A stretch of 64,000 nt of DNA, taken from Desulfobacteraceae bacterium. Its GTDB lineage: Bacteria > Desulfobacterota > Desulfobacteria > Desulfobacterales > JAABSP01. A program made the position numbers and the translations under genes. Below, piece by piece: positions 1 through 33,702 of the stretch (the first letter of the stretch is position 1; every line of letters begins with the position of its first letter). Below the pieces are notes generated by a model. It had not been told where the DNA came from and searched no databases. It was given only the letters and a program-made list of their open reading frames with translations. The stretch is from assembly GCA_011390135.1 (NCBI GenBank), contig JAABSZ010000002.1, forward strand, positions 3,039-67,038, given 5' to 3'.

Positions 1-364
1 AGAGGGCAAAGAGGCCCGCGGCCACGGCTGTCCAGTGGAAAAAGAGGCGAACAAATGTTCGTGAAATCGGCTTTCGCTGCTTTCGGGCACGGCGCAGATG
101 GATAAGGGTTCCCAGGATCCCGGCAAAAAGGCCCAGATAGAGGAGCAGCTCCGTAGCTGAATAGGGGGCCGGAACGAGCCGGGCCGGCCAGGAAAGGAGA
201 TGGGCCAGCCAGGGGTAGATCATCCGGGAGTAGCCGTATTCGATCTTGTTCGGATGATCCGACAGGAGATAGCGAAAACCCAGGGCTGCGATGCATCCGC
301 CGAACAGGATCAGATGCCAGCCGGAGATCAGAGGGGTCCGGTGTACGATTCTTCGATTTCCCAT
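1..364 (-). CDS. Membrane protein, DUF3810-like; N-terminal part only, gene runs off the left edge
   Basis: ATG at 364..362. My own translation is MGNRRIVHRTPLISGWHLILFGGCIAALGF..EYGYSRMIYPWLAHLLSWPARLVPAPYSATELLLYLGLF. It has hydrophobic helices and a YSRxIYPW...P.S..E pattern that I associate with DUF3810. It is absent from the ORF track because there is no stop in the window. Confidence 0.45.
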   Translation of the reverse strand, partial: MGNRRIVHRTPLISGWHLILFGGCIAALGFRYLLSDHPNKIEYGYSRMIYPWLAHLLSWPARLVPAPYSATELLLYLGLFAGILGTLIHLRRARKQRKPISRTFVRLFFHWTAVAAGLFAL

Positions 365-540
365 AACAGCTCTTTACGGTTCCGTTTAAAGGATTGCTTG
401 AAAATCATAGGATATAAAGTTAGACTATAAGGCGGAGAGGTAACCTATAACCGCCTGATGATATCTCATATCCTAAACCATTGAAAAGGTCAAGCCTGCA
501 GGCATCCATCTCCATTCTCTAACGAACAAGGAGTTATGAA

Positions 541-3201
541 ATGAATCTCAAAACTATCAAAGGAAAGCTCACCGCGGGTTTTGCTCTCATGCTGATTCTT
601 CTGGCCGTGGTATCGGTCATCAGTATTTTCATGCTCTCGAACATGAACAATCGGATCAACAACATTGTCGATCGATCGGCCGAGAAGATGAAACTGGCCG
701 CGCGCATCAATCAGGATCTCATCGATATCTCCCGGGGAGAGAAGAATCTGATCCTGGCCGATGATGAGCAGAAGATGGCCGATTCAGCAGCATTTATTCA
801 ACAGACCCGAGATGAGATGAGGGCGCGCCTCCAGGGGCTTCGGGATCTTTCCGATCAGCAGGAGAAGGCTCAGCTCGAAGAATTCTCCCGGCTCTGGAAC
901 GCCTATCTGGAGACCGGCAAGCAGGTCATCGCTTTGGCTCAATTGAATTCCAATGTAGAGGCCAATGCCCTGTCCGACAATGCCGGAGCGGCCGCCTTCA
1001 ACCAGAGCGAAAGGGGATTGCGTCAGTTGATGGCGGAGCTGGAGAAGAAGTATGAAAAAGCGCTCCCTCAAAAGGCGCGGTTTCAGGAGGCGCGTCGGGC
1101 CGGGGAGAGGTTGATTGCCGATCTTTTACAGCTTCAGCGTGCGGAAAAAGAGATGCTGCTGAACAGGGAGGCCCCAACCGCAAATGAAGATCGACAGCGG
1201 TTTGGCTATGGCCGGAACCAGGGCGAAAGCTTCGATCTTTTTCTGCAGAATCACCGCGGATATCTCGAAGCCATTGACAAGGAATTGAATGCGCTTTCCG
1301 CGCTTTTCACTGCTGACGAGGATACAAAAAGAAGTCCTGTCGGCACTCTCATGGGGCCGGTAAAAGATGCTCTTCAGCGGCTGGAGCAGGGAACCGGAAC
1401 CGTTGCCGGCCTTCTTCTGAGAGGAGAGATCGATCGGGCTGTGGAACTTTCCGGGCAGAGTGTGGCCGCGGATTACAGGGCCGCGGAGAGTGCGATGCAG
1501 GAGCTGATTGCCGAATTGACCCGGCAAAGAGATGAGGCCGATCATGTTGCTCTGCTGGCAGACGATCTCCTCAAAGAGACGGGAATGATCCTTGCGCGGA
1601 TCTTTTCGATTCACAGGGATGAAAAAGGATTGATTCTGGATAAGAAGATCGAGAGTATGGAGCTGTATGCGGCATCGATTCAGGGATCGGTTTCTGAAAT
1701 CGAGAAGCGTGTGGAGGCCATCGAGGATGCCCAAGATCCCTCTCTTCGTCCCCATCTGTCCCGGTTTGACAAAGCCTGGAAGGAATTTCTTGCCATCGAT
1801 CAGAAGGTCATCGAGTTGAGCCTGGAGAACGGAAATCAGCGGGCCTATACCCTCTCCTCCGAAACCGGCGAATCCCAGATGGCCAGTGCCCGGGATGTGA
1901 TGAGGGGGATTCTGGAGAAGAGCGAGGCAAAGATGGCCCAGGACGCGCTGGAGACCGATGAGGCATACCAATTCTCCTTCTGGCTCAACCTCATCCTTTT
2001 GGTTTTGGCTGTGGCCGTCGGCATCTTCATCGCCTATCGCATCATCCGGGGCATCGAAACAGGGCTTTCAAATGCCATGAGCATCTCAAACGCTCTTGCC
2101 GAGGGGAATCTGACAGTCGATATCGATATTGAAGGGGAGGATGAGATCTCCTCGCTGCTGCATGCGATGCAGCGGATGGTTGCGCGGCTGAAAGAGATTG
2201 TCGCAGAGATTGCCCGGGCTGCGGAGAATGTGGCTTCGGGCAGTCAGCAGATGAGTTCCAGCGCAGAGGAATTGAGCACCACTGCGCAGCAGATGTCCGA
2301 AGGGGCATCGGAACAGGCCGCCTCGATCGAGCAGGTCTCCTCTTCAATGGAGGAGATGACGGCCAATATCCAGCAGAATGCCGACAATGCGCTGCAGACC
2401 GAAAAGATCGCTGCCAAATCCGCGCAGGGGGCCGAGGAGGGCGGAAAGTCGGTGAACCACACGGTGAAGACCATGCAGGACATCGCCGGCCGGATCACCA
2501 TCATCGAGGAGATCGCGCGTCAGACCGATCTGCTCGCGCTGAACGCGGCCATCGAGGCCGCCAGGGCCGGGGATCATGGCAAGGGATTTGCGGTGGTGGC
2601 CTCAGAGGTGCGAAAGCTCTCGGAGCGGAGCCAGCGGGCCGCGGCCGAGATCATCGAATTGGCCGGCAGCAGCGTCGAGATTGCGGAAAAATCGGGCGAA
2701 AAGCTTGCATCGCTGGTGCCGGATATCCGGCGGACCTCGGAGCTGGTGCAGGAGATCTCCGCGGCCAGCAACGAGCAGAGCAGCGGCGCTGAGCAGGTCA
2801 ACCTGGCCCTGCAGCAGCTCGACGAGGTGATTCAGCAGAATGCCACCGCGTCCCAGGATGTGGCCTCCACCGCGGAGGAGATGGCCGCGACCTCCGAGGA
2901 GCTTTCGGGGCAGTCGGAATCCCTGCGCAGCAGCATCGCGTACTTCAAGCTGGAGCAGAAGGATCGCTCTGTTGGTTCCGGGCTGCAGAGTGTCCGGCCT
3001 TCCAGGGAGGCGAAAAAGGGGCATATCGCTGTGCCCGGGGCGCCAAAAGCGCCGCAGAGAAAGGAAAAGCTCCGGAAGACCGGGAAAAAGGAGCCCTCCC
3101 GGGAGCTGAGTTTCGATGTTTCCGGAGAGGAGAAAACGGAATACGACGATATTGCGAAAGGGGAAGAGGATGTCCGGGATGGGGATTTTGAGAAGTATTG
3201 A
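541..3201 (+). CDS. Methyl-accepting chemotaxis protein with a very long helical periplasmic domain, HAMP, MCP signalling domain and a long C-terminal tail
   Basis: 886 aa. TM1 is around residues 13-32 and TM2 around 478-500. The tip motif [41 protein letters not shown] is present. AAGGAG RBS at 527..532. Confidence 0.9.
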
Positions 3202-3260
3202 TTACAAAAGTAAGCATTTTCCTCGCTGCCCCTTTTCCGAAATCTCCACATGGGAAAGAA

Positions 3261-4565
3261 TCAGTCGGGTGATGGTTTTTCCGGGGGCCGATACCGCAGG
3301 TCCTGCTTGATTAGGGATTCGAGGGTCGCGTCCAGAAAGGGCTTCATGCAGTCCCGCCCGATTCGGCCATCGCGGAAGTAGGCCATCTGGCGGCAGCCGC
3401 CGAAGCACTGGGGGAGATAGGGGCAGGCCAGGCACTCCTTGTTCTTCCAGATCTCCAATCCATGGGAACGGGCAGCCTTCTGAGGGTCGAGACCGGTATT
3501 CACATGACCTACGGCAAATTCCTCGATACCGATGAGCGCGGGGCATTTGTAGACGGCCCCGTCCCAGTGGACCACGAAGAGGTCGTCGGTCTCGATCATG
3601 CAGTGGAGGGGGCCGGGTTTGGGGGTGTAATAGCCCCGGGAGAGAACCACCTCCCGAAGCGTCAATATAGGATGAATCAGCCAAGACTCATTGAAGGAAC
3701 TGCAGCCGGTATTGCTTACGGGTTCAAAGCTGACCGGCATGAATCGGAGAGAATCGATCCGGTCTGGGGTGAGGCCAGCCTTTTCCAGCTCGTCGAGCAG
3801 GGGTAGGAAATCCATGTAGTTTTTCTGCAGAAAATTTCCGCTGATTCCTATTCGGATGAGATCGCAGACTGCGGCCGCATTTCCAATCACCCGTTCAAAG
3901 CTGCCAGTCCCATTTGCAAAGGGCCGGCTGCGGTCGTGGATCGTTTTTGGGCCATCAAGGGTGATCGCAGCAAGGGTCAGACCAAAAGGGAGCAGGAATT
4001 CGACCGTATTTCGGGTCAGAAGAGAGCCATTGGTGGTCAATATCGCATCGTACTGGGCACCTTTCCCTTCGGCAAAGGATTTGAGCCTTTCGGAGATGTA
4101 GCGGATCAGATCTGTTTTCAGCAGGGGCTCTCCGCCGTAAAAGTTGACAGTCAGGTGCTCTTTGGGTACTGCAAATTGATCCCACTGGGCCTTTACGAAC
4201 CGGATCAGTTCCTCTGCAGTCTGTTGGGACATGTGCTGATGGGACTTAATACGGTTTTCAAAACAGTAGGTGCAGGCGAAGTTGCAGTCCAGGGTCAGCA
4301 CCGCGGTGATATCGAACTTCTTCGATCTCGCGTTCCGCTTTTTGAAGCCGTCGAGCATCTCCTGTTGTTCGGCCTTTTTATCCTGCGTGATGAGCTTCAG
4401 ATCGGAGAAGAGTTTTTCCTGGTCCGGTGTGAGGCGGCCGGCCTCGATATCCGGGATCATGGCCGCCGGAACCCGTACCACGGACGCCTTTAGGGTGGAA
4501 TAAAGGATACGGTGATCAAGCTTCTCATCGCAGGGGTAGATCTTCGTGTAAGTGGATATCGGCAT
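3261..4565 (-). CDS. Radical SAM / SPASM-domain peptide-modifying enzyme (maturase-like)
   Basis: 434 aa. CNFACTYC (CxxxCxxC) lies about residue 95. The C-terminal CLACPYLPQCFGGC matches Cx2Cx5Cx3C, with further upstream Cys residues (CSSF, HCMIE, YKCP). The N-terminal ~90 aa resemble the substrate-recognition region of SPASM maturases. Confidence 0.85.
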   Translation of the reverse strand: MPISTYTKIYPCDEKLDHRILYSTLKASVVRVPAAMIPDIEAGRLTPDQEKLFSDLKLITQDKKAEQQEMLDGFKKRNARSKKFDITAVLTLDCNFACTYCFENRIKSHQHMSQQTAEELIRFVKAQWDQFAVPKEHLTVNFYGGEPLLKTDLIRYISERLKSFAEGKGAQYDAILTTNGSLLTRNTVEFLLPFGLTLAAITLDGPKTIHDRSRPFANGTGSFERVIGNAAAVCDLIRIGISGNFLQKNYMDFLPLLDELEKAGLTPDRIDSLRFMPVSFEPVSNTGCSSFNESWLIHPILTLREVVLSRGYYTPKPGPLHCMIETDDLFVVHWDGAVYKCPALIGIEEFAVGHVNTGLDPQKAARSHGLEIWKNKECLACPYLPQCFGGCRQMAYFRDGRIGRDCMKPFLDATLESLIKQDLRYRPPEKPSPD

Positions 4566-4579
4566 AGAGAAATGGCCGG

Positions 4580-4606
4580 GGGAGGGACGGATGATCCGCC
4601 CCTCCC
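4580..4606 (-). promoter_or_regulatory. GC-rich stem-loop between the small peptide ORF and the rSAM gene
   Basis: Plus strand reads gggagggacgg-atgat-ccgcccctccc: an 11-bp stem with one A.C mismatch and a 5-nt loop. It sits in the 48-nt gap between stop 4614 and start 4565. Confidence 0.4.
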
Positions 4607-4613
4607 TTTAAAG

Positions 4614-4757
4614 TCAAGGTTTTGGCTTTGGCTCCGGCTCCGGCGCTTTGGTAAAAGGTACTGGATCAATTAAACAGCACCCCTCTACATTGTTCCCTTC
4701 GATCCCCCTGTCGAGGATCTCCACTGAAGAATCGCTCTGCTTTTCATCTTTTTCCAT
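4614..4757 (-). CDS. Unannotated 47-aa peptide, candidate RiPP precursor (acidic leader, Cys-Cys core, Pro-rich EP/KP tail)
   Basis: Hand translation: MEKDEKQSDSSVEILDRGIEGNNVEGCCLIDPVPFTKAPEPEPKPKP*. AAGGAAAG RBS lies about 6 nt upstream. It starts 24 nt after the TonB-receptor stop and ends 48 nt before the rSAM start, on the same strand. It is too short for the ORF track. Confidence 0.5.
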   Translation of the reverse strand: MEKDEKQSDSSVEILDRGIEGNNVEGCCLIDPVPFTKAPEPEPKPKP

Positions 4758-4781
4758 AGGGCTTTCCTTACTTTACTGGGT

Positions 4782-6731
4782 TTAGAAGTGGAAGCGTATC
4801 CCCGCCTCCATCCACCGTTTCGGATTATCGTAATAGTCAAAATCATAGGAAGATCCGTCGAACATGTTATGGATGGTTGCGAAGAGGTCGGCATTGATTT
4901 CTCCGATGCTGACGTTTCGGCGCAGATTGAGATCCCATATGGGGTCATCATAGCTCGCATTTGACGAGGAGGGCTCATCCCACCAGGTATAGATCCCTGC
5001 CAGACGGAGGCTTATGATCTTCGGGTTATTATATCGAAGCCCTGCAACCCATTTGTACTTCTTTTCATCATTTTCCTCCTGCGCCTGATTATCCGTAATG
5101 ACATAGGAGAATCCGCCGAAGAAAGAAAAGTCATGGATTGGCAGGGTCTCCATCTCGATCTCAAATCCCCGTCGTCGATCTTCGTTCTTATTCAGCATGA
5201 TCGTGTTTCCTGGAGGACCTTCAGCATAGAGTTCTCTGGAAAGAATATCTTCGATTTCATGCTGAAAGAGATTGATTCTGGCCCACAGATAGGGAATGGC
5301 ACTTGTCTCCGCGCCGAGCTGATATGACCAGATCTTTTCGTAATCCAGATCTGGATTCGGGGCCAGAAGAAAGCCACCCATTTTGACCAAACCGATGCCG
5401 GGTGCGGAGAAGCCCCTTGATGCAGCCGCTCTGAAGAGGATCTCTTTCCAATGACAGGTCAGATCAAGACTGGGGCTGATGAATCCGCCTATGAATTCGT
5501 GGTGATCGTAGCGGATTCCGGGAGTAATGGCAAAATTTCCCAGCGTTACCGTATCGTTGAGATAGAGAGCCCACAGATTCCGTTTTGAATCGGATTCCAT
5601 CTTCGGCGGTGCTCCATATCCCTGGTACAGGGGACCGTATGCGTTTACCCTTTCCATATCGGCACGGTTCCCATCCGCGCCCAGCACCAGCCGATGGATT
5701 TCGTTCTCCCATGTCAGATTTCCGGCAAATCCAAAAATTCGCTGATCACCCCCGGTGTTCAACAGGAGTTCCGGTCTATCCGAATAAATGCCAGCTCCCA
5801 GAGTGCTGGTATTTGTATTGTATTTCTGCCGGAATCCATAGAGGGAAAGAAAGAACGCCATCCTCTCTGAAAGGCTGGTATTGAAGTCAATGGCGCCCCA
5901 GACTGTCCTGTCCTGAATATCAGAAACCATATCCCCTTCCGTATATTCCCCCAAATCATTCCAGGGCTCACTGTAGCCGAAGGTAATGCCCATCGCTGTG
6001 CGTTCCCACAGAGGGATGCGCAGCTTTGAAAAGAGACTGCTGTTTTCATACTCCCGCGTGGGCTCCAGCCCGTCGGATTCCTGATGGTCTGCAAAGAGAT
6101 AGTAGCCGGTATTCCCTGCCTTACCAGAGATCTCCCCCTGGTAGTTTTGAGATGCGGCCTCGCCATAGGAAGCTTGAAGCATTCCTATCGGCTTTTGCGT
6201 ATGGCCTGCGGACTTGGTGATGACGTTGATGACGCCGCCCAGAGAAGAACCCCATGATGAAGATGCAGGCCCTTTGACGATCTCGATCCGCTCCACCGCA
6301 CCGACGGGTATCGACTGGATTGCGGGTTCTCCGGAGTAAACCGAGTTCCAGGGGATGTTATCCACATAGACCTGTATGTGTCGAAGCTCGGAGCCTTGAA
6401 TGTACGGCAGGGAAATTGCTCCGAAATCCTGATTGCTGGAGATAAAGATCCCTGGAACCTGCCGGAGCACCTCTCCCAGCGTGTGCGCGTTCATGGCCCG
6501 GATCTCGGCTGCATTGATCACAGTGATGTTCTCCGCAACCTGGGAGATGGGCTTGAGAGACCGCGTCGCGCTGATCACCTGCAGCTCCTCGGGCCGGTAG
6601 TAGAGGGAGAGAATGGCCATCTCCTCTTCGGTCTGGGATTGTGCCGCGGAAAAAGGAAAAAGAAGCAGCAGCATGGAAACGATGGCGGACAATCGGCGGG
6701 AAAAGAATTTTGGAAACATCTTTGAACTCAC
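4782..6731 (-). CDS. TonB-dependent outer-membrane receptor (plug plus beta-barrel)
   Basis: 649 aa. Signal peptide ...LLLLFPFSAAQSQ. Plug region ELQVISATRS...NITVINAAEI...LGEVLRQVPGI. IEIVKGPASSSWGSSLGGVINVITK motif. C-terminal ...GIRFHF ends in the terminal aromatic typical of OM barrels. Confidence 0.85.
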   Translation of the reverse strand: MSSKMFPKFFSRRLSAIVSMLLLLFPFSAAQSQTEEEMAILSLYYRPEELQVISATRSLKPISQVAENITVINAAEIRAMNAHTLGEVLRQVPGIFISSNQDFGAISLPYIQGSELRHIQVYVDNIPWNSVYSGEPAIQSIPVGAVERIEIVKGPASSSWGSSLGGVINVITKSAGHTQKPIGMLQASYGEAASQNYQGEISGKAGNTGYYLFADHQESDGLEPTREYENSSLFSKLRIPLWERTAMGITFGYSEPWNDLGEYTEGDMVSDIQDRTVWGAIDFNTSLSERMAFFLSLYGFRQKYNTNTSTLGAGIYSDRPELLLNTGGDQRIFGFAGNLTWENEIHRLVLGADGNRADMERVNAYGPLYQGYGAPPKMESDSKRNLWALYLNDTVTLGNFAITPGIRYDHHEFIGGFISPSLDLTCHWKEILFRAAASRGFSAPGIGLVKMGGFLLAPNPDLDYEKIWSYQLGAETSAIPYLWARINLFQHEIEDILSRELYAEGPPGNTIMLNKNEDRRRGFEIEMETLPIHDFSFFGGFSYVITDNQAQEENDEKKYKWVAGLRYNNPKIISLRLAGIYTWWDEPSSSNASYDDPIWDLNLRRNVSIGEINADLFATIHNMFDGSSYDFDYYDNPKRWMEAGIRFHF

Positions 6732-7094
6732 TTTACAAAATAAAAGCGGGGTTTAAGGATAAATGCATCGCATCGGGAAGCGTTTTGGAAAAGCCCGTTC
6801 CGACACCAGACAAGGCGAGTCTCCTCCGCAAACGAGGAATTCAAAGATATCACACCCCTTTTCCTCGTGCAAGTCAAAAAAAACCTCTTCTCTCCCCTTC
6901 CCTTTTCTTCACTTTTCCTGTAGACTTTTTGTGCAGATTTCTGATAAGAAACAAAAGCGGCAGAGGGTTAAAAATGCGGCATCTGTTTTTTCCGAATATA
7001 TTTCCCTGGCTTTCATCTGAGACGCTATGAAGGTTGGTCCATATTCCCATTATCGCCGAAACGGCAGGAGCCGGCGACAGAGAAACCTTTCCCT

Positions 7095-7994
7095 ATGAAA
7101 CGGCTTCTCCTCTTATTCCTCCTGCTGCTGAATATTTCCCTGCCGGCTCAGGCCTCCAGCCTGGTGGCGGTGGTGGAAAGCATCAGGATTCCGCCCTACG
7201 AGGCCGCGATCGACGGATTCGGCCAAGCCTGCAGTTGCACCACAAAACGGTTTCTGATCTCGGAACTGGGAGAGGAGGCTCTCCTATCCCTTATCGAGGA
7301 AGAGAAACCCCGACTGATACTGGCTGTGGGAAACGAGGCACTGGGCAAGGTACTCTCCGTCACCCATATTCCCATCGTCTATCTCATGGTCTTCAACCCC
7401 TGGGATATCGTCGAAGACCAGGAAAACATCTCCGGCGTCAGCATGAACATTCCGCAGAAAAAGCAGTTGGAGATTCTCATTACAGCCGCGCCCGATGTAG
7501 AGCGGGTCGGATTTCTCTACAATCCGGATCGAAACCGGATTTTTGCAGAAAAGGCCAAGGCAGCGGCCGATGAACTGGGGGTTCAACTCCTCTCTGTGGC
7601 CGTTCATAAATCCGCGGACATGGCCCAAAGGCTCAAAGAGATCGTCAAAGAGATTGACGGGTTCTGGATGATCCCCGACATCATCGTCTATACCCCCGAG
7701 ACGATCCAGCACCTGCTGCAGGTCTCGCTGGAGAACCGTTTTCCGGTACTCTCTTTTTCAGAAAAGTATCTTGATATGGGGGCATTTCTTTCCGTCACCT
7801 TTGATCCGGAGGATTTAGGCCGGCAGGCCGGGGAGATGGCCCAAAAGATTCTAAAGGGGACCTCGGGGCGGCGGGTGATGAACACGGAGGCGAGAAAGCC
7901 GGTGATTCAGATCAACAAGACCGTGGGGAAGCGTCTGAGGATCGAGTCCGATCTCGATGCCGCAGAGATGACCCTTCTGGAAATGGGGAAATAG
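7095..7994 (+). CDS. Periplasmic ABC-type substrate-binding protein (PF04392-like), probably a co-sensor for the downstream kinase
   Basis: 299 aa with a signal peptide. The pattern IPIVYLMVFNPWDIV...ISGVS...KKQLEILITAAPDVERVGFLYNP...GRQAGEMAQKILKG resembles the ABC_sub_bind family. Confidence 0.7.
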   Translation: MKRLLLLFLLLLNISLPAQASSLVAVVESIRIPPYEAAIDGFGQACSCTTKRFLISELGEEALLSLIEEEKPRLILAVGNEALGKVLSVTHIPIVYLMVFNPWDIVEDQENISGVSMNIPQKKQLEILITAAPDVERVGFLYNPDRNRIFAEKAKAAADELGVQLLSVAVHKSADMAQRLKEIVKEIDGFWMIPDIIVYTPETIQHLLQVSLENRFPVLSFSEKYLDMGAFLSVTFDPEDLGRQAGEMAQKILKGTSGRRVMNTEARKPVIQINKTVGKRLRIESDLDAAEMTLLEMGK

Positions 7995-8007
7995 GCGAGG
8001 CGGAATT

Positions 8008-11000
8008 ATGCTGCTTCAAACCATCAGACAGAGCTTTTTTCTGAAGATGCTTCTGGCTTTCACCCTCTTTACGCTGCTGGTGAGCACTTTTTTCACCCTC
8101 TTCTTCATCCATCACCAGTACAGACTCCTCACCCGGATGCAGATGGAAAACGGAAGGGTGCTTGCTGAAATCATCGCAAGAAATGTAACCCTCGGGGTGA
8201 TGTCCGAAAGCACAGAACTGCTCTCCGATGCGGTCTGGAGCGCATTTGAAAAGGAGGATGTGGTTCAGGTCTTTGTCTATAATCAGGAGGCCCGCCTGCT
8301 GATGGGGTCGAATCGAAATGCCCTTTATCCTGAAGATTCGCCTGCTGCCCCTTCCCGGGAAGAGATCAGAAAGATCATTGCAGACTTTGCCGGTTTTCCC
8401 GTTCCCCATGATCCGGAACAAGATTACCCCTTTCTCCACCAGGGCCGGAGGGATGCAGATGAATTCTGGTGCGGTGTCATCTACGCGCCGCGCTTTCGTA
8501 CCGAGGAGGCGATGGTTCTCGGCATGGATATGAGGCAGGGCCCCACCCAACAGATGGCAGGGGTCATCGGTCTGGTGATGGATCGCCAACCCCTGAAGCA
8601 AAATATCATCGACATTGCCCGTCGGGCCGGCCTGTTCGGGCTGCTATTCTGGCTAATCGGATGTTTCGTGATGTTCTTGTTCGTCCGCCGCTTCACCCGG
8701 CCTTTGAACCGGCTGATCAAAGGGGTGAGGGCCCTGGGACTGGGGCTGGATTCAGAAAAGATCCATCCGGAGACCGATGACGAGATCGGCGCGCTGGCGC
8801 TCTCCTTCAACGACATGGCCACCTCCCTCCGCTCCCGGGAGGAGGCGCTGCAGAAATCAGAGCATAAATATCGCTCTATCTTTGAAAACGCGGCCGATGG
8901 TATCTTTCAGGCGGATATCGATGGAGATCTCATCACTGCGAATCCCGCGATGGCCCGGATTTTTGATCATGAATCTGCGGAAATAATGTGCCAGGGCCGG
9001 GTCAATATCTTCTCCCTTCTCAACATGACGCATGAGCAAAACGCGGAGCTGATGAACCATCCGGGCGCGGATTTCTCCAGGGCCATCGAAATCGGCTGCC
9101 AGAACCGGTCCGGACAGGATCTCTTTCTGCTGGTTCATCTCCACACGATCGAGGAGGGCGGGAACGGGAAAAGGATTTTCGAGGGGCTGATCCGGGATGT
9201 CACGGATCAGAAGCGCTCCGAGCGCCTGAAGATCGCAAAGGAGGCGGCCGAGGCTTCAGCCGATGCCAAGAGCCGTTTTCTGGCCAACATGAGCCATGAG
9301 ATCCGCACCCCCCTCGGCGCGATTTCGGGAATGGTGATGCTGATGGGGCAGACTGAATTGACCCCGAAACAGTCCGATTATATGGAAAAGATCGAATCCT
9401 CCTCCCGACTGCTCATGCGGGTGATCAATGATGTGCTGGATATCTCGAAAATCGAGGCCGGAAAACTGGACATGGAGAAGATCCCCTTCTCCTGGTCCCT
9501 GCTGATGACAAACATCGAAGACATGTTTGCCGAAAAGGCCCGGGAAAAGAAGATCGAGCTTTCCATGGGTTGGGATAGAGAGATTCCCGAAGATCTCAAC
9601 GGGGATGCCGAGAGGATCAAACAGATTCTGATCAATCTCATCGGCAACGGACTGAAGTTCACTCCGGAGAGCGGATTTGTGAAGGTAGATGCCCATATCG
9701 CAGAAGAGACTTCAGAAGAGATCCGGATCGGTTTTGCGATCTCAGATTCCGGTATCGGAATCCCGAAGGAGAAGCTCAAGACCATCTTCGATGCCTTTAC
9801 CCAGGCAGATGATTCCATGACCCGGCGCTACGGCGGCACAGGTCTCGGCCTTTCCATCTGCCGACAGCTTGTGGAACTGATGGATGGCGACATTCAGGTC
9901 AACAGCGAGCCGGGCCGGGGAACCACTTTCTGCTTCTCTCTGCTGCTGGAAAAGGGCTGCCGGAAAATGATGGCCCCGGCCACCAGAGACGATGATCCCT
10001 CTTTTGTCGGGGCCCGGATTCTCATTGCCGAAGATCATGAGATCAATCGGGAGGTTGCGCTCTCCCTGCTGGAGCCCTTGGGAGTGACCACCGATGTCGC
10101 GGTGAATGGCCGAAAGGCATGGAACGCGGTTCAAAGCCGTCACTATGACCTGATTCTGATGGATCTGCAGATGCCGGAGATGGACGGCCTCGAGGTGACC
10201 CGAAGGATCAGAGGGCTTGAAGGAAACGCGGCAAGGATTCCCATTGTTGCGATGACCGCGCACGCCCTGAGCGAAAGCCGGCTGGCCTGCCTCGAGGCCG
10301 GGATGAATGATTTTCTGACCAAACCCCTTGATCCGACGCTTCTGATGGCGACCCTCTCCCGATGGATCGGAGCGCTGAACCGCGCGCCGGCGCAGGAGTT
10401 CCTTCAGACGCCATCGGCAGGGGATGAATCCCAAAGCCCCCTCCCCTTTTCTGAACCCGCGGCCCATTCGGATCTTTCAACAGATCTTTCGACAGAGATT
10501 TCGACAACCTCATCGAATATGGCTGTTATCGATTATGATGAAGGTGCGCTCCGGATGGGGGGAAAGCCGGAGGTCTTTGAGCGGATTCTCTTTCTGTTTC
10601 ACACCCACTATCATCAGGCCGGAGAAAAGATCGGCCAGAGCCTGGTTCATGGCCGAAGCGAGGATGCCCTGCGGCAGATTCATACCATCAAGGGGGCTGC
10701 GGGAAATTGTGCGGCTCACCAGCTTGTGGCGGCCGCAGAGCAGCTCGAGGATACGATCCGGTTTGGCCGGGATCATAACCGCGATCTCGATCGGTTTTCA
10801 GGGGAACTGGACCGGGTGATCACGGAGATCGACCAGCTCCGAAATGATTCAAGAAAAGCCAATGGAGATGGCGAACTCCCGGAAAGGAGATCCCCCCCCT
10901 CCCCCCTTCCGGAAACCTTGTCCCCGGAGATGAAAAAGATTCTCCGTTCAGAGCTTTGCTCACTGGAGGAGCTGTTGCAGAAGAACAATATCCGGGCGAT

Positions 11001-11142
11001 TCCTGAGATGGAGAGCCTTCGGGATCGGATCTGCCTGGCCGCATCTCCGGAAACCGTGAAAGCCCTGGTGTCGAACATTGAAAATCTCGATTTCACCCGA
11101 GCGGGAAAAATTCTGCAGGAGATTATTTCCGGATTGAAATAG
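8008..11142 (+). CDS. Hybrid sensor histidine kinase (TM sensor, HAMP, PAS, HisKA, HATPase, REC, HPt)
   Basis: 1044 aa. H-box FLANMSHEIRTPL. ATPase motifs GNGLKFT, DSGIGI, GGTGLGLSI. REC ILIAEDHEINREV...DLILMDLQMPEMDG. C-terminal HPt IHTIKGAAGN. Confidence 0.9.
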   Translation: MLLQTIRQSFFLKMLLAFTLFTLLVSTFFTLFFIHHQYRLLTRMQMENGRVLAEIIARNVTLGVMSESTELLSDAVWSAFEKEDVVQVFVYNQEARLLMGSNRNALYPEDSPAAPSREEIRKIIADFAGFPVPHDPEQDYPFLHQGRRDADEFWCGVIYAPRFRTEEAMVLGMDMRQGPTQQMAGVIGLVMDRQPLKQNIIDIARRAGLFGLLFWLIGCFVMFLFVRRFTRPLNRLIKGVRALGLGLDSEKIHPETDDEIGALALSFNDMATSLRSREEALQKSEHKYRSIFENAADGIFQADIDGDLITANPAMARIFDHESAEIMCQGRVNIFSLLNMTHEQNAELMNHPGADFSRAIEIGCQNRSGQDLFLLVHLHTIEEGGNGKRIFEGLIRDVTDQKRSERLKIAKEAAEASADAKSRFLANMSHEIRTPLGAISGMVMLMGQTELTPKQSDYMEKIESSSRLLMRVINDVLDISKIEAGKLDMEKIPFSWSLLMTNIEDMFAEKAREKKIELSMGWDREIPEDLNGDAERIKQILINLIGNGLKFTPESGFVKVDAHIAEETSEEIRIGFAISDSGIGIPKEKLKTIFDAFTQADDSMTRRYGGTGLGLSICRQLVELMDGDIQVNSEPGRGTTFCFSLLLEKGCRKMMAPATRDDDPSFVGARILIAEDHEINREVALSLLEPLGVTTDVAVNGRKAWNAVQSRHYDLILMDLQMPEMDGLEVTRRIRGLEGNAARIPIVAMTAHALSESRLACLEAGMNDFLTKPLDPTLLMATLSRWIGALNRAPAQEFLQTPSAGDESQSPLPFSEPAAHSDLSTDLSTEISTTSSNMAVIDYDEGALRMGGKPEVFERILFLFHTHYHQAGEKIGQSLVHGRSEDALRQIHTIKGAAGNCAAHQLVAAAEQLEDTIRFGRDHNRDLDRFSGELDRVITEIDQLRNDSRKANGDGELPERRSPPSPLPETLSPEMKKILRSELCSLEELLQKNNIRAIPEMESLRDRICLAASPETVKALVSNIENLDFTRAGKILQEIISGLK

Positions 11143-31124: not shown

Positions 31125-31290
31125 TCCCTTCTTTGACTCTTTTTCCGCGGTGGGATGCCTTCTTCGGGGATGGATCGTTCAGATTGATTATCGTTTGGGG
31201 TCCGTTTCGGAAAAAAGGGTTGCTCAATATTGGGAAAATCAATTAAATAAGTAGATATGATAAGGGGATGATGAGAACCCCTTTGGCCTT

Positions 31291-33702
31291 ATGGCCGAAT
31301 ACTGTACGGAAGAATCGGAGGGACTTTTGCCGGAATCGAATACCAGGACATCTTTAAATGATGCGGCCGCGCTTCTGATAGGAATGGATGCAGAGGATCT
31401 CTCGGAGCTGTCCCAACTGGAGACCCTTCTACAGGCGGTTTTTGAAGATATGACCATCACCGACAACTGTAGAAGGAGTGTGGACTCGGCCCTGGAAAAG
31501 ATCGGGGCGCTGAAGACCCCTTCTGTCTCCTCTTCCGGGATCGAATCCGAGCTGACGGAGATCGGCAAAGGGATTGAAAATGCTCTGAATGCCCTCGATG
31601 AGGAGGAGAAGGTGGAAGAGCGTTTGGCCCTGGCCTCCGATGACCGCGAAACCGGAACAGATAGAGCCGATACAGCTCTTGAAGCCGAACCCGAACCGGA
31701 GCCGGAAACTGAACCGGAAGCCGAACCGGAAACAGATCGGGAAACAGATCGGGAAACAGAAGTGATTCCCTGGCCCGCTTTCAAACCCAGAGCAGATGAA
31801 AGGGAGCCCAAAGCCGAAGAGTCTGCCTCATCGAACCCCCGGGAGTTTCTGCTGCCCGAATCTACAGATCTGGATATGATGGATGCATTTCTCACCGAAA
31901 GCGCTGACCTGATAGGCGGCGCTGAAGAGGCCCTGCTGACCCTGGAGGAGAATCCGGAGGATATGGATGCGGTCAGTACCGTCTTTCGGGCATTCCATAC
32001 CATCAAGGGAACCTCCGGCTTCCTCGAACTCAAGCCCATCTCCGATCTGGCCCACCGGGCAGAGTCTCTGCTGAGCCAGGTGCGGGACAGGGAGATCCGG
32101 TACGGCGGGGGCTATGCCGATCTTGCACTGCGATCCATCGATCTCTTGAAAGATCTGCTGGCAACGGCCCAGGGGGCGATCAACGGTAAACCCTTTCTGA
32201 TCTTTGAGGAGTATGATGAGTTGATCGGCCTTCTGGATCATCCCGAGGCGGCCGGTTCGGAAACCGCTTCTTCGGAAACACCTTCTTCGGAAACCCCTTC
32301 TCAGGAAACCAGGGAACCGGAGACGGATGCCTCCTCTTCAGAAGAGCCGATGTTCGATGCCGATGCGGCCTTATCCGATAAAGATGCTGGTGAGGAAGAG
32401 AAGGCTTTTGCCCCGTCTTCTCCGATTTCCGACAAAAACAAGAAGGAGGAGGCCGACGAGAAGAAGACGACCTCCCGCGACACCTCCAAAGGGTTTGTGG
32501 AGTCCTCCATCCGGGTTCCGGTGGACCGGCTGGACCGCTTTATCGACATGGTGGGGGAGCTGGTGGTGGCGCATTCCATGGTGGCCCAGGACGAGGTGGT
32601 GACCGATGGGCAGAACCATGAACTCTTGAAAAAGGTCGGCCAGAGCGGAAAGATCGTCCGGGAGCTGCAGGGAATGTCCATGTCCATGCGGATGATCCCC
32701 CTGAAGACCACCTTTCAGAAGATGGCCCGGCTGGTGCGGGATCTCTCGAGAAAGGCCGGTAAGAATATCACCTTTTTCACCGAAGGGGAGGATACGGAGA
32801 TCGACCGGAACATGGTGGACATCATAAATGATCCCCTTGTCCATATGGTACGGAATGCCGTGGATCATGGCATCGAGTCTCCCACGGAACGGGAGCGGGC
32901 CGGCAAGCCGGTCAACGGAACCGTTCAACTGGACGCATACCATTCGGCCGGCAATGTGGTGGTGGAGATCCGGGATGACGGAAAGGGGCTGGACCGGGAG
33001 GGGATCATCGCAAAGGCCGGGGATCGGGGGCTGATCGCGGACCGCGAGGCCCTGACGGACCGGGAGATCTACAACCTGATCTTTGAGCCGGGCTTCTCCA
33101 CGGCCGCGACCATCTCCGAGGTCTCGGGCCGGGGGGTGGGGATGGATGTGGTCAAGACCAACATCGAATCCCTTCGGGGTAGCGTGGAGATCCAGTCCAC
33201 CCCGGGCAGGGGATGCCTTTTCAAGATGAGCCTGCCCTTGACTTTGGCCATCATCGACGGGATGGTGGTCCGGCTGCGGGATCAGAAATATGTGATCCCC
33301 ACGATCTCTATTGTCCGTTCGGTTCAGCCGGAAAAGTCGGATATGAACACTGTCTTTCAACGGGGAGAGATGCTCAAGCTCCAGGGACGGCTCATCCCCC
33401 TCTTCCGTCTGGGGGAGCTTTTCGGCATCGAGGGCGCGGAGACCGACTATACCAAGGCGATCGTGGTGGTGGTGGAAGATGATGACCGGCAGGCCGGGCT
33501 GATGGTGGATGAACTCATCGGCAGCCAGCAGATCGTGATCAAGACCCTTGGGGAGGCGCTCGGTGATATCCCCGGGATTTCCGGCAGTGCGATCATGCCC
33601 AACGGCCGGGTGGGCCTCATCCTCGATGTGGGCGGACTGGTCCGGATGGCCAACGAGAAGAAGAGAGGGGCGGCGCAGAAGCATGAACCTGATGTTGACT
33701 GA
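31291..33702 (+). CDS. cheA: Chemotaxis histidine kinase CheA, with a ~195-aa acidic N-terminal extension if the first ATG is used
   Basis: 803 aa. HPt VFRAFHTIKGTSGFLEL, dimerisation region, HATPase (DPLVHMVRNAVDHGIE, DDGKGLD, SGRGVGMDVV), and a CheW-like P5 domain. The canonical-looking start MMDAFLTES is at 31876. Confidence 0.9.
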   Translation: MAEYCTEESEGLLPESNTRTSLNDAAALLIGMDAEDLSELSQLETLLQAVFEDMTITDNCRRSVDSALEKIGALKTPSVSSSGIESELTEIGKGIENALNALDEEEKVEERLALASDDRETGTDRADTALEAEPEPEPETEPEAEPETDRETDRETEVIPWPAFKPRADEREPKAEESASSNPREFLLPESTDLDMMDAFLTESADLIGGAEEALLTLEENPEDMDAVSTVFRAFHTIKGTSGFLELKPISDLAHRAESLLSQVRDREIRYGGGYADLALRSIDLLKDLLATAQGAINGKPFLIFEEYDELIGLLDHPEAAGSETASSETPSSETPSQETREPETDASSSEEPMFDADAALSDKDAGEEEKAFAPSSPISDKNKKEEADEKKTTSRDTSKGFVESSIRVPVDRLDRFIDMVGELVVAHSMVAQDEVVTDGQNHELLKKVGQSGKIVRELQGMSMSMRMIPLKTTFQKMARLVRDLSRKAGKNITFFTEGEDTEIDRNMVDIINDPLVHMVRNAVDHGIESPTERERAGKPVNGTVQLDAYHSAGNVVVEIRDDGKGLDREGIIAKAGDRGLIADREALTDREIYNLIFEPGFSTAATISEVSGRGVGMDVVKTNIESLRGSVEIQSTPGRGCLFKMSLPLTLAIIDGMVVRLRDQKYVIPTISIVRSVQPEKSDMNTVFQRGEMLKLQGRLIPLFRLGELFGIEGAETDYTKAIVVVVEDDDRQAGLMVDELIGSQQIVIKTLGEALGDIPGISGSAIMPNGRVGLILDVGGLVRMANEKKRGAAQKHEPDVD

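Follow-up and report, generated by a model that had tools for sequence, protein, structure and literature searches.

A divergent, putative geopeptide-type precursor gene between TonB-dependent receptor and radical SAM maturase genes of a Desulfobacteraceae bacterium

Organization of the locus

The window (the whole stretch of 64,000 nucleotides of Desulfobacteraceae DNA analysed here) carries a minus-strand operon in which the genes of a TonB-dependent receptor, a putative precursor peptide and a radical SAM/SPASM maturase follow one another in this order, with a hairpin between the last two; the genes of a binding protein and a histidine kinase lie on the other strand (Table 1). The small open reading frame (ORF) in the precursor position is a conserved gene of the translated type. 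Its strand, which we clarify here, is minus (read from 4757 to 4614), and its translation is MEKDEKQSDSSVEILDRGIEGNNVEGCCLIDPVPFTKAPEPEPKPKP, followed by TGA. Both the 47-aa product and the ribosome-binding site (RBS) of the original prediction were exact, AAGGAAAG being the sequence before the ATG. Records of 14 contigs list the same 47-aa product as a called gene without a name. The position given for the receptor gene was also correct: the encoded protein has the Plug and barrel domains, ends in AGIRFHF with the canonical C-terminal Phe, and its TAA is located 24 nt before the precursor ATG. Receptor gene and precursor ORF share a reading frame, with two in-frame TAA codons between them (4784-4782 and 4775-4773). 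The maturase gene, which starts 48 nt downstream of the precursor on the same strand, had been overlooked.

Table 1. Coordinates of the features at the locus (window numbering)
Feature	Positions	Strand	Basis or remark
Radical SAM/SPASM peptide maturase, 434 aa, TIGR04280 'geopeptide radical SAM maturase'	3261..4565	minus	NCBIfam, structure model
12-bp GC-rich hairpin, GGGAGGGGCGGA-UCA-UCCGUCCCUCCC	4580..4606	minus	fold; between precursor stop and maturase start
Putative precursor peptide gene, 47 codons + TGA	4614..4757	minus	translation, hhalign, sole motif match in window
C-terminal extension APEPEPKPKP, lineage-specific	4617..4646	minus	missing from 33 other family peptides
Post-CC core LIDPVPFTK	4647..4673	minus	fits subtype CC-x5-P-[FYI]-[RTWI]
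Invariant Cys27-Cys28, presumed modification site	4674..4679	minus	alignments and codon variation
Leader motif VEILDRGI, residues 12-19	4701..4724	minus	alignments A2 and A3, synonymous codon variation
Shine-Dalgarno-like sequence	4762..4769	minus	4 nt 5' of ATG, read from sequence
TonB-dependent receptor, Plug + barrel, about 645 aa, first operon gene	4782..6731	minus	Pfam
Periplasmic binding protein, PF04392 ABC_sub_bind	7095..7994	plus, divergent	Pfam, E 7e-31
Hybrid histidine kinase, HAMP-PAS-HisKA-HATPase-REC-Hpt	8008..11142	plus	Pfam; directly after binding protein

The maturase is a clear member of the TIGR04280 family. It scored 490.1 bits with this NCBIfam model (cutoff, 400) over positions 1-426 of 428, and it has the CxxxCxxC motif (C94/C98/C101) and the complete seven-Cys SPASM motif, both invariant. 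The next-best NCBIfam models (CefB, TIGR04463, PapB, CcpM, QhpD, and SCIFF), all well under their cutoffs, all represent Cys-directed peptide maturases. The AF2 model (pLDDT, 87) has an N-terminal domain of three strands and three helices (beta-beta-beta-alpha-alpha-alpha) before the radical SAM barrel, and in this model the domain would be a peptide-recognition element. The best solved structural match was CteB, a thioether synthase of the sactipeptide class, over the full length (Foldseek E 1.7e-20), and CteB was also the best sequence match in the PDB (phmmer E 1e-17). Two maturase homologues of other loci (P0025, encoded at L105 5019-7100, and P0097) have an extra C-terminal domain of 260-300 aa with a DDFID motif, and this extension gave no match to Pfam in either protein.

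The receptor start is probably the ATG at 6719, and sister contigs call the receptor at 645 aa. Receptor orthologues (29-43% identity) were linked to the maturase in 15 of the 15 loci with enough flank, and the identities of receptor and maturase to those of the window correlated (rho 0.60, p 0.018); the association with a TonB-dependent receptor, to which the original prediction had drawn attention, is thus conserved. The PF04392 gene adjoins the receptor gene in eight other loci (L002, L006, L015, L016, L101, L102, L104, and L105), in four of which (L006, L101, L104, and L105) a histidine kinase gene also follows that of the binding protein. L102 has tandem TonB-dependent receptor genes (1038-2879 and 3736-5577, 613 aa each) upstream of its precursor and maturase genes.

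The surroundings of the operon vary. A half-size MFS-like gene (about 185 aa), whose product may be an exporter, lies directly after the maturase gene in L002 (4274-4813), L101 (7308-7868), and L105 (7199-7762); the protein is 66-74% identical between loci, better conserved than the maturase, and is missing from the window. A 2.9-kb segment of the window (386-3249, with the gene of a methyl-accepting chemotaxis protein at 541-3201, plus strand) is missing from the sister contigs L001 and L090, and the last residues of the maturase differ (434 aa in the window, 428 aa in L001 and L090); there was therefore an insertion here or a deletion there, at the maturase stop. In the sister contigs the gene after the maturase encodes a DUF3810 membrane protein with a HEKAH (HExxH) motif (L090 4642-5796), a possible leader peptidase candidate. 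The corresponding gene of the window (1-364, minus strand) has its start at 364 and is truncated by the left end of the window. In the comparison of the window with L001, the receptor and the peptide were 100% identical, and the 7.2-kb match included 154 mismatches (97.5% identity), 15 of which were in the maturase. Most of them must therefore be in the binding-protein and kinase region (window 6800-10457), and divergence across the cassette is uneven.

Conservation of the precursor ORF

The loci used for comparison were those encoding maturase homologues at 38-50% identity, 17 of which had sequence upstream of the maturase gene. A word-based search with the 47-aa peptide alone returned only the peptide itself, and when genomes were scanned with the single maturase protein, nothing outside the source lineage (L001, from a Desulfobacteraceae MAG) was retrieved. 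Of 80 loci from a metagenome scan with the maturase alignment, only about 10 were orthologous, because the scan patterns were generic for radical SAM proteins. Going by source names, the family occurs in Desulfobacterota and Nitrospirota.

In each of the 17 orthologous loci whose sequence extends upstream of the maturase gene, a same-strand ORF of 30-45 aa directly precedes that gene (loci with such an ORF: L002, L005, L006, L008, L010, L013-L019, L043, and L101-L105). These ORFs have in common a leader of the form h-x-h-L-D-x-G-h (VEILDRGI in the window), an invariant Cys-Cys pair, a short tail (7-15 aa after CC in 33 relatives), and a GC-rich hairpin past the stop. The two cysteines were the sole invariant columns in the alignments of 18 and 30 sequences, and the leader Gly was near-invariant. 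Conservation of the CC core among relatives, proposed earlier as a check, was thus found in every locus with upstream sequence. The Asp and Thr residues that had been suggested as thioether acceptors fared differently: the alignments show no conserved Asp, Thr, or Asn past the CC pair, and the proposed acceptors are therefore not a family trait.

A subtype, CC-x5-P-[FYI]-[RTWI], is common to the window and L002, L005, L006, L101, L103, L104, and L105 (for example, CCLIDPVPFT in the window, CCSGPLTPFR in L006, and CCIGALTPFRG in L101). Aromatic amino acids are the ligands of those PF04392 proteins whose structures have been solved (PMC10443332), which may be a weak hint when taken with the conserved P-F/Y of the subtype. 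The ORF at the precursor position of L014 (1279-1518) has a Lys-rich (KKKAT)n leader with no L-D-x-G, and keeps CC followed by seven residues. In L104, two geopeptide-like precursor genes (5833-5937 and 7417-7524) flank one maturase gene, the second encoding MEREEIIILDDGIDDPVDTDGVGCCSLMYIPFRSY.

The window peptide was compared with the family by several methods. With a profile of 30 members from which the window peptide was excluded, hhalign gave a probability of 87% (E 4.1e-6) with residues 10-38 aligned. An HMM built without the window peptide ranked the window ORF first of the 1523 six-frame segments of the window, at a marginal E of 0.072; in the first HMM, which included the Lys-rich leader of L014, the ORF was second (E 1.3), and it became first when L014 was dropped. 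For this peptide, hhalign is more informative than the HMM ranking. A family motif written post hoc (leader h-x-h-h-[DNEHT]-x-[GK], CC, and 6-25 aa to the stop) matched one of the 1523 segments, the precursor ORF. Among 19,189 segments from about 100 fetched loci it matched only ORFs directly adjoining geopeptide-type radical SAM genes, all upstream of the radical SAM gene except the second copy in L104, which lies just downstream.

Across loci, synonymous codons vary at the conserved L, D, and G of the leader and at both cysteines, with TGC and TGT in every combination for the CC pair, a coding signature of the kind that the original prediction had asked for across orthologs. Among closely related members of one subgroup, identity is 80% in the leader, as against 32% in the 10 residues after CC; a conserved leader with a variable core is the pattern expected of a RiPP precursor, as judged from the sequences. 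Note that the 11 sister contigs compared were identical in DNA over the receptor and the peptide ORF, and none of them provided close variants usable for dN/dS, which counts against the geopeptide reading.

The profile of the NCBIfam model TIGR04229 ('geopeptide') has 22 positions and a cutoff of 30 bits. It matched six of the 12 tested relatives that adjoin bona fide TIGR04280-type genes, five of the matching relatives having 16.7-24.9 bits (E 1.2e-5 to 4.7e-3). The best relative reached 24.9 bits and none of the 12 the cutoff, and the cutoff is therefore narrow. The window peptide gave no match to this model even at E up to 10, a result counted against the geopeptide reading; since some of its relatives do match, we regard it as a divergent relative missed by the curated model.

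The fold of the minus strand over 4556-4630 had -32 kcal/mol (z -4.9), and none of 200 shuffled sequences was as stable. An equivalent hairpin, often with a T-run, was present 3' of the precursor in 16 of 16 other loci tested (17 of 17 including the window). The hairpin is probably an attenuator or a transcript stabiliser that would set the precursor-to-enzyme ratio. The Rfam scan of 3000-8200 detected no riboswitch or other known RNA element, promoter and terminator consensus matches were not above the shuffled expectation, and the repeat scan of the divergent promoter region yielded nothing convincing.

The extension APEPEPKPKP lies past the end of the conserved core (CC-x5-P-F-T-K), and such a run occurs in none of the 33 other family peptides. 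With it, the region after CC has 19 residues in the window, more than in any other of the 34 peptides (median, 10); as a rule, peptides of the family stop 0-4 residues past the P-[FY]-[RK] position. The DNA of the tail is composed of near-tandem hexanucleotides (CCGGAG CCGGAG CCAAAG CCAAAA), which suggests an origin by slippage. Runs of at least four [EK]P were found once per 1.35 million six-frame residues in unrelated loci. Elsewhere in the window, an 812-residue stop-to-stop segment (31264-33699, plus strand) has an acidic EPEPEPETEPEAEPE run, which besides the peptide tail is the only run of at least three [EK]P in the window.

Proposed pathway and competing explanations

We consider it very probable that the product of the ORF is a RiPP precursor of the geopeptide type. 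The original prediction had already read the ORF as a RiPP precursor, and this is borne out by the leader and conserved CC core, by the maturase gene 48 nt downstream, and by the homologous ORFs of all 17 loci. Also counted against the geopeptide reading were the structural neighbours TigE, SuiB, and anSME of the maturase, which represent other radical SAM/SPASM chemistries, the lack of a conserved acceptor residue after CC in the 18- and 30-sequence alignments, and the lack of an exporter or leader peptidase gene in the window operon.

The ORF is short and in frame with the receptor, as would be expected of an ORF arisen by chance between the genes or of a receptor tail made by read-through. 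However, it is preceded by two in-frame stops and has its own RBS, the receptor has a canonical C-terminal Phe, and the ORF, its motif and its position are conserved in 17 loci; the probability of chance origin or read-through is negligible, and read-through, against which the original prediction had also argued, was rejected. Alternatively, the peptide would be no substrate but an attenuator leader, the tandem Cys codons of which sense Cys-tRNA and control the downstream enzyme. Tandem codons with a hairpin resemble the layout of classical amino-acid attenuators, and the ORF has tandem identical codons with a strong hairpin, in many loci with a T-run, ahead of the next gene. Against this, the amino acids of the leader motif are conserved while their codons vary, the hairpin arm found no anti-terminator pairing when the complete ORF was folded together with the hairpin (220 nt), the enzyme encoded downstream is from a family of peptide maturases and its model has an N-terminal domain read as peptide-recognition, and in L104 a second precursor copy comes after the enzyme. 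Given no competing pairing and a motif conserved through synonymous changes, the idea of an attenuator leader peptide was rejected after the test, and we regard it as very improbable. The tail, which the original prediction had likened to TonB, might by itself be functional, as a rigid spacer or a decoy for the receptor/TonB system. TonB of E. coli has a Glu-Pro/Lys-Pro spacer that PEPEPKPKP resembles, [EK]P runs are rare, and the gene lies 24 nt after that of a TonB-dependent receptor. However, the 33 other family peptides keep the same receptor linkage with no such tail, the tail is past the conserved core, its near-tandem hexanucleotide DNA is consistent with slippage, and neither Pfam nor NCBIfam detected a TonB domain in the peptide. 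Conservation of the EP/KP tail, another check proposed originally, was thus not found in any relative, TonB mimicry is therefore unsupported, and we consider it extremely improbable. The tail is a recent, lineage-specific extension from hexanucleotide repeats, outside the conserved mechanism, and its likeness to TonB, the feature first noticed, is incidental.

For a precursor of the geopeptide type, the following pathway can be proposed. The leader strand VEILDRGI would dock on the N-terminal domain of the maturase, the CC-containing core would enter the active site, and the enzyme would join the cysteines, through one or two thioether cross-links, to residues close by in the short C-terminal core; we give such cross-linking, as the predicted chemistry of the maturase, an even chance. 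The hairpin after the precursor would leave more precursor transcript than enzyme transcript. More speculatively, the mature peptide may act outside the cytoplasm, the TonB-dependent receptor may re-import it or its metal complex across the outer membrane, and the PF04392 binding protein and its partner histidine kinase may sense the peptide or the metal complex. The cassette would then be a self-contained circuit of anaerobic Gram-negative bacteria, in which a CC peptide modified by the radical SAM enzyme is released, re-imported by the receptor and read out by PF04392 and the hybrid kinase, that is, a TonB-gated peptide signal or metallophore-sensing loop. To our knowledge, there is no RiPP class with TonB-gated re-import and periplasmic kinase sensing, and we regard a circuit of this kind as decidedly unlikely. 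It is also possible, although rather unlikely, that the CC pair is processed by the radical SAM enzyme and trimmed to a small thiol/sulfur metal ligand or a cofactor, which is secreted and recaptured by the receptor. That the core is variable except for the invariant CC would agree with a peptide-derived metallophore or cofactor, as would the co-conservation of a dedicated receptor and a periplasmic binding protein. There are also analogies in methanobactin operons, which carry a TonB-dependent receptor (MbnT) and a binding protein (MbnE), and in PqqU, which imports the peptide-derived PQQ and the model of which is among the weak matches of the window receptor. However, the binding protein gene is accompanied by a histidine kinase gene instead of an ABC permease or ATPase gene, no metal-responsive riboswitch or other known RNA element was found upstream, and the nearest relatives of the enzyme make intrapeptide thioethers, not small cofactors.

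Significance and comparison with known systems

The geopeptide family has so far been a database entry without chemistry or biology: its status is 'hypothetical equivalog', and a literature search found no experimental literature on the family or on TIGR04280. The present data allow the precursor to be defined, for working purposes, more broadly than by the curated model, through a leader with L-D-x-G, an invariant CC, about 10 core residues, and a post-stop hairpin. They are also evidence for a TonB-dependent receptor as an obligatory partner and for a binding protein with a histidine kinase as a frequent one. Candidates that could be co-expressed in a heterologous host likewise come from the locus and the comparison set. 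Import of the mature peptide by the receptor, if true, would mean that Desulfobacterota and Nitrospirota have a radical SAM RiPP with dedicated outer-membrane uptake, which would bear on how metals are acquired or how cells signal to one another in anoxic sediments. Taken alone, the EP/KP tail is of little importance.

The peptide shares with the spacer of TonB only a short (EP)2(KP)2 run, 10 residues long as compared with tens in TonB and not conserved in the peptide family; as it has neither a membrane anchor nor the C-terminal domain of TonB, and no match to Pfam or NCBIfam, its membership in TonB was rejected. In the methanobactin operon (MbnA, MbnT, and MbnE), the gene of a small precursor likewise accompanies those of a TonB-dependent receptor and a periplasmic binding protein. 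However, the modifying enzymes there are MbnBC, not radical SAM proteins, the binding protein belongs to another family, and that of the window is paired with a histidine kinase.

The enzymes of the ranthipeptides (PapB and SCIFF, TIGR03974) and QhpD are related radical SAM/SPASM proteins that also act on Cys, and their Cys-to-Asp/Glu/Thr thioethers are the chemistry suggested in the original prediction. However, the window maturase scored far from their cutoffs (PapB, 130 against 340; SCIFF, 103 against 425; QhpD, 107 against 453), and the peptide has two cysteines only, with no multi-Cys repeat and no conserved Asp/Thr acceptor. Membership in the ranthipeptide/SCIFF group was rejected, with the PapB and SCIFF scores under the cutoffs and no conserved acceptor. 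The closest solved system is CteB with CteA, the thermocellin precursor (PDB 5WGG/5WHY). CteB has the radical SAM core and the full SPASM domain, with a Cys-containing precursor beside the enzyme, and aligns to the window maturase, whose model has the N-terminal three-strand, three-helix domain, over about 450 columns. The enzyme architecture and CteB as the best match thus fit the sactipeptide class (Cys-to-alpha-carbon thioethers), at the level of the fold and with only 18-19% identity. The window precursor differs from CteA in having just two adjacent cysteines and a very short core, and the geopeptide system occurs in Gram-negative anaerobes and is tied to an outer-membrane receptor.

With the geopeptide system itself, the locus shares a maturase that passes the curated TIGR04280 cutoff, the same gene order, and a leader L-D-x-G with CC, the region that TIGR04229 spans in the relatives. 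It differs in that the peptide does not register on TIGR04229 and has a unique 10-residue EP/KP extension, and in that no other maturase on record is more than 50% identical to that of the window. Thus, the locus is a new, divergent member of a known but uncharacterised database family, with an unusual tail.
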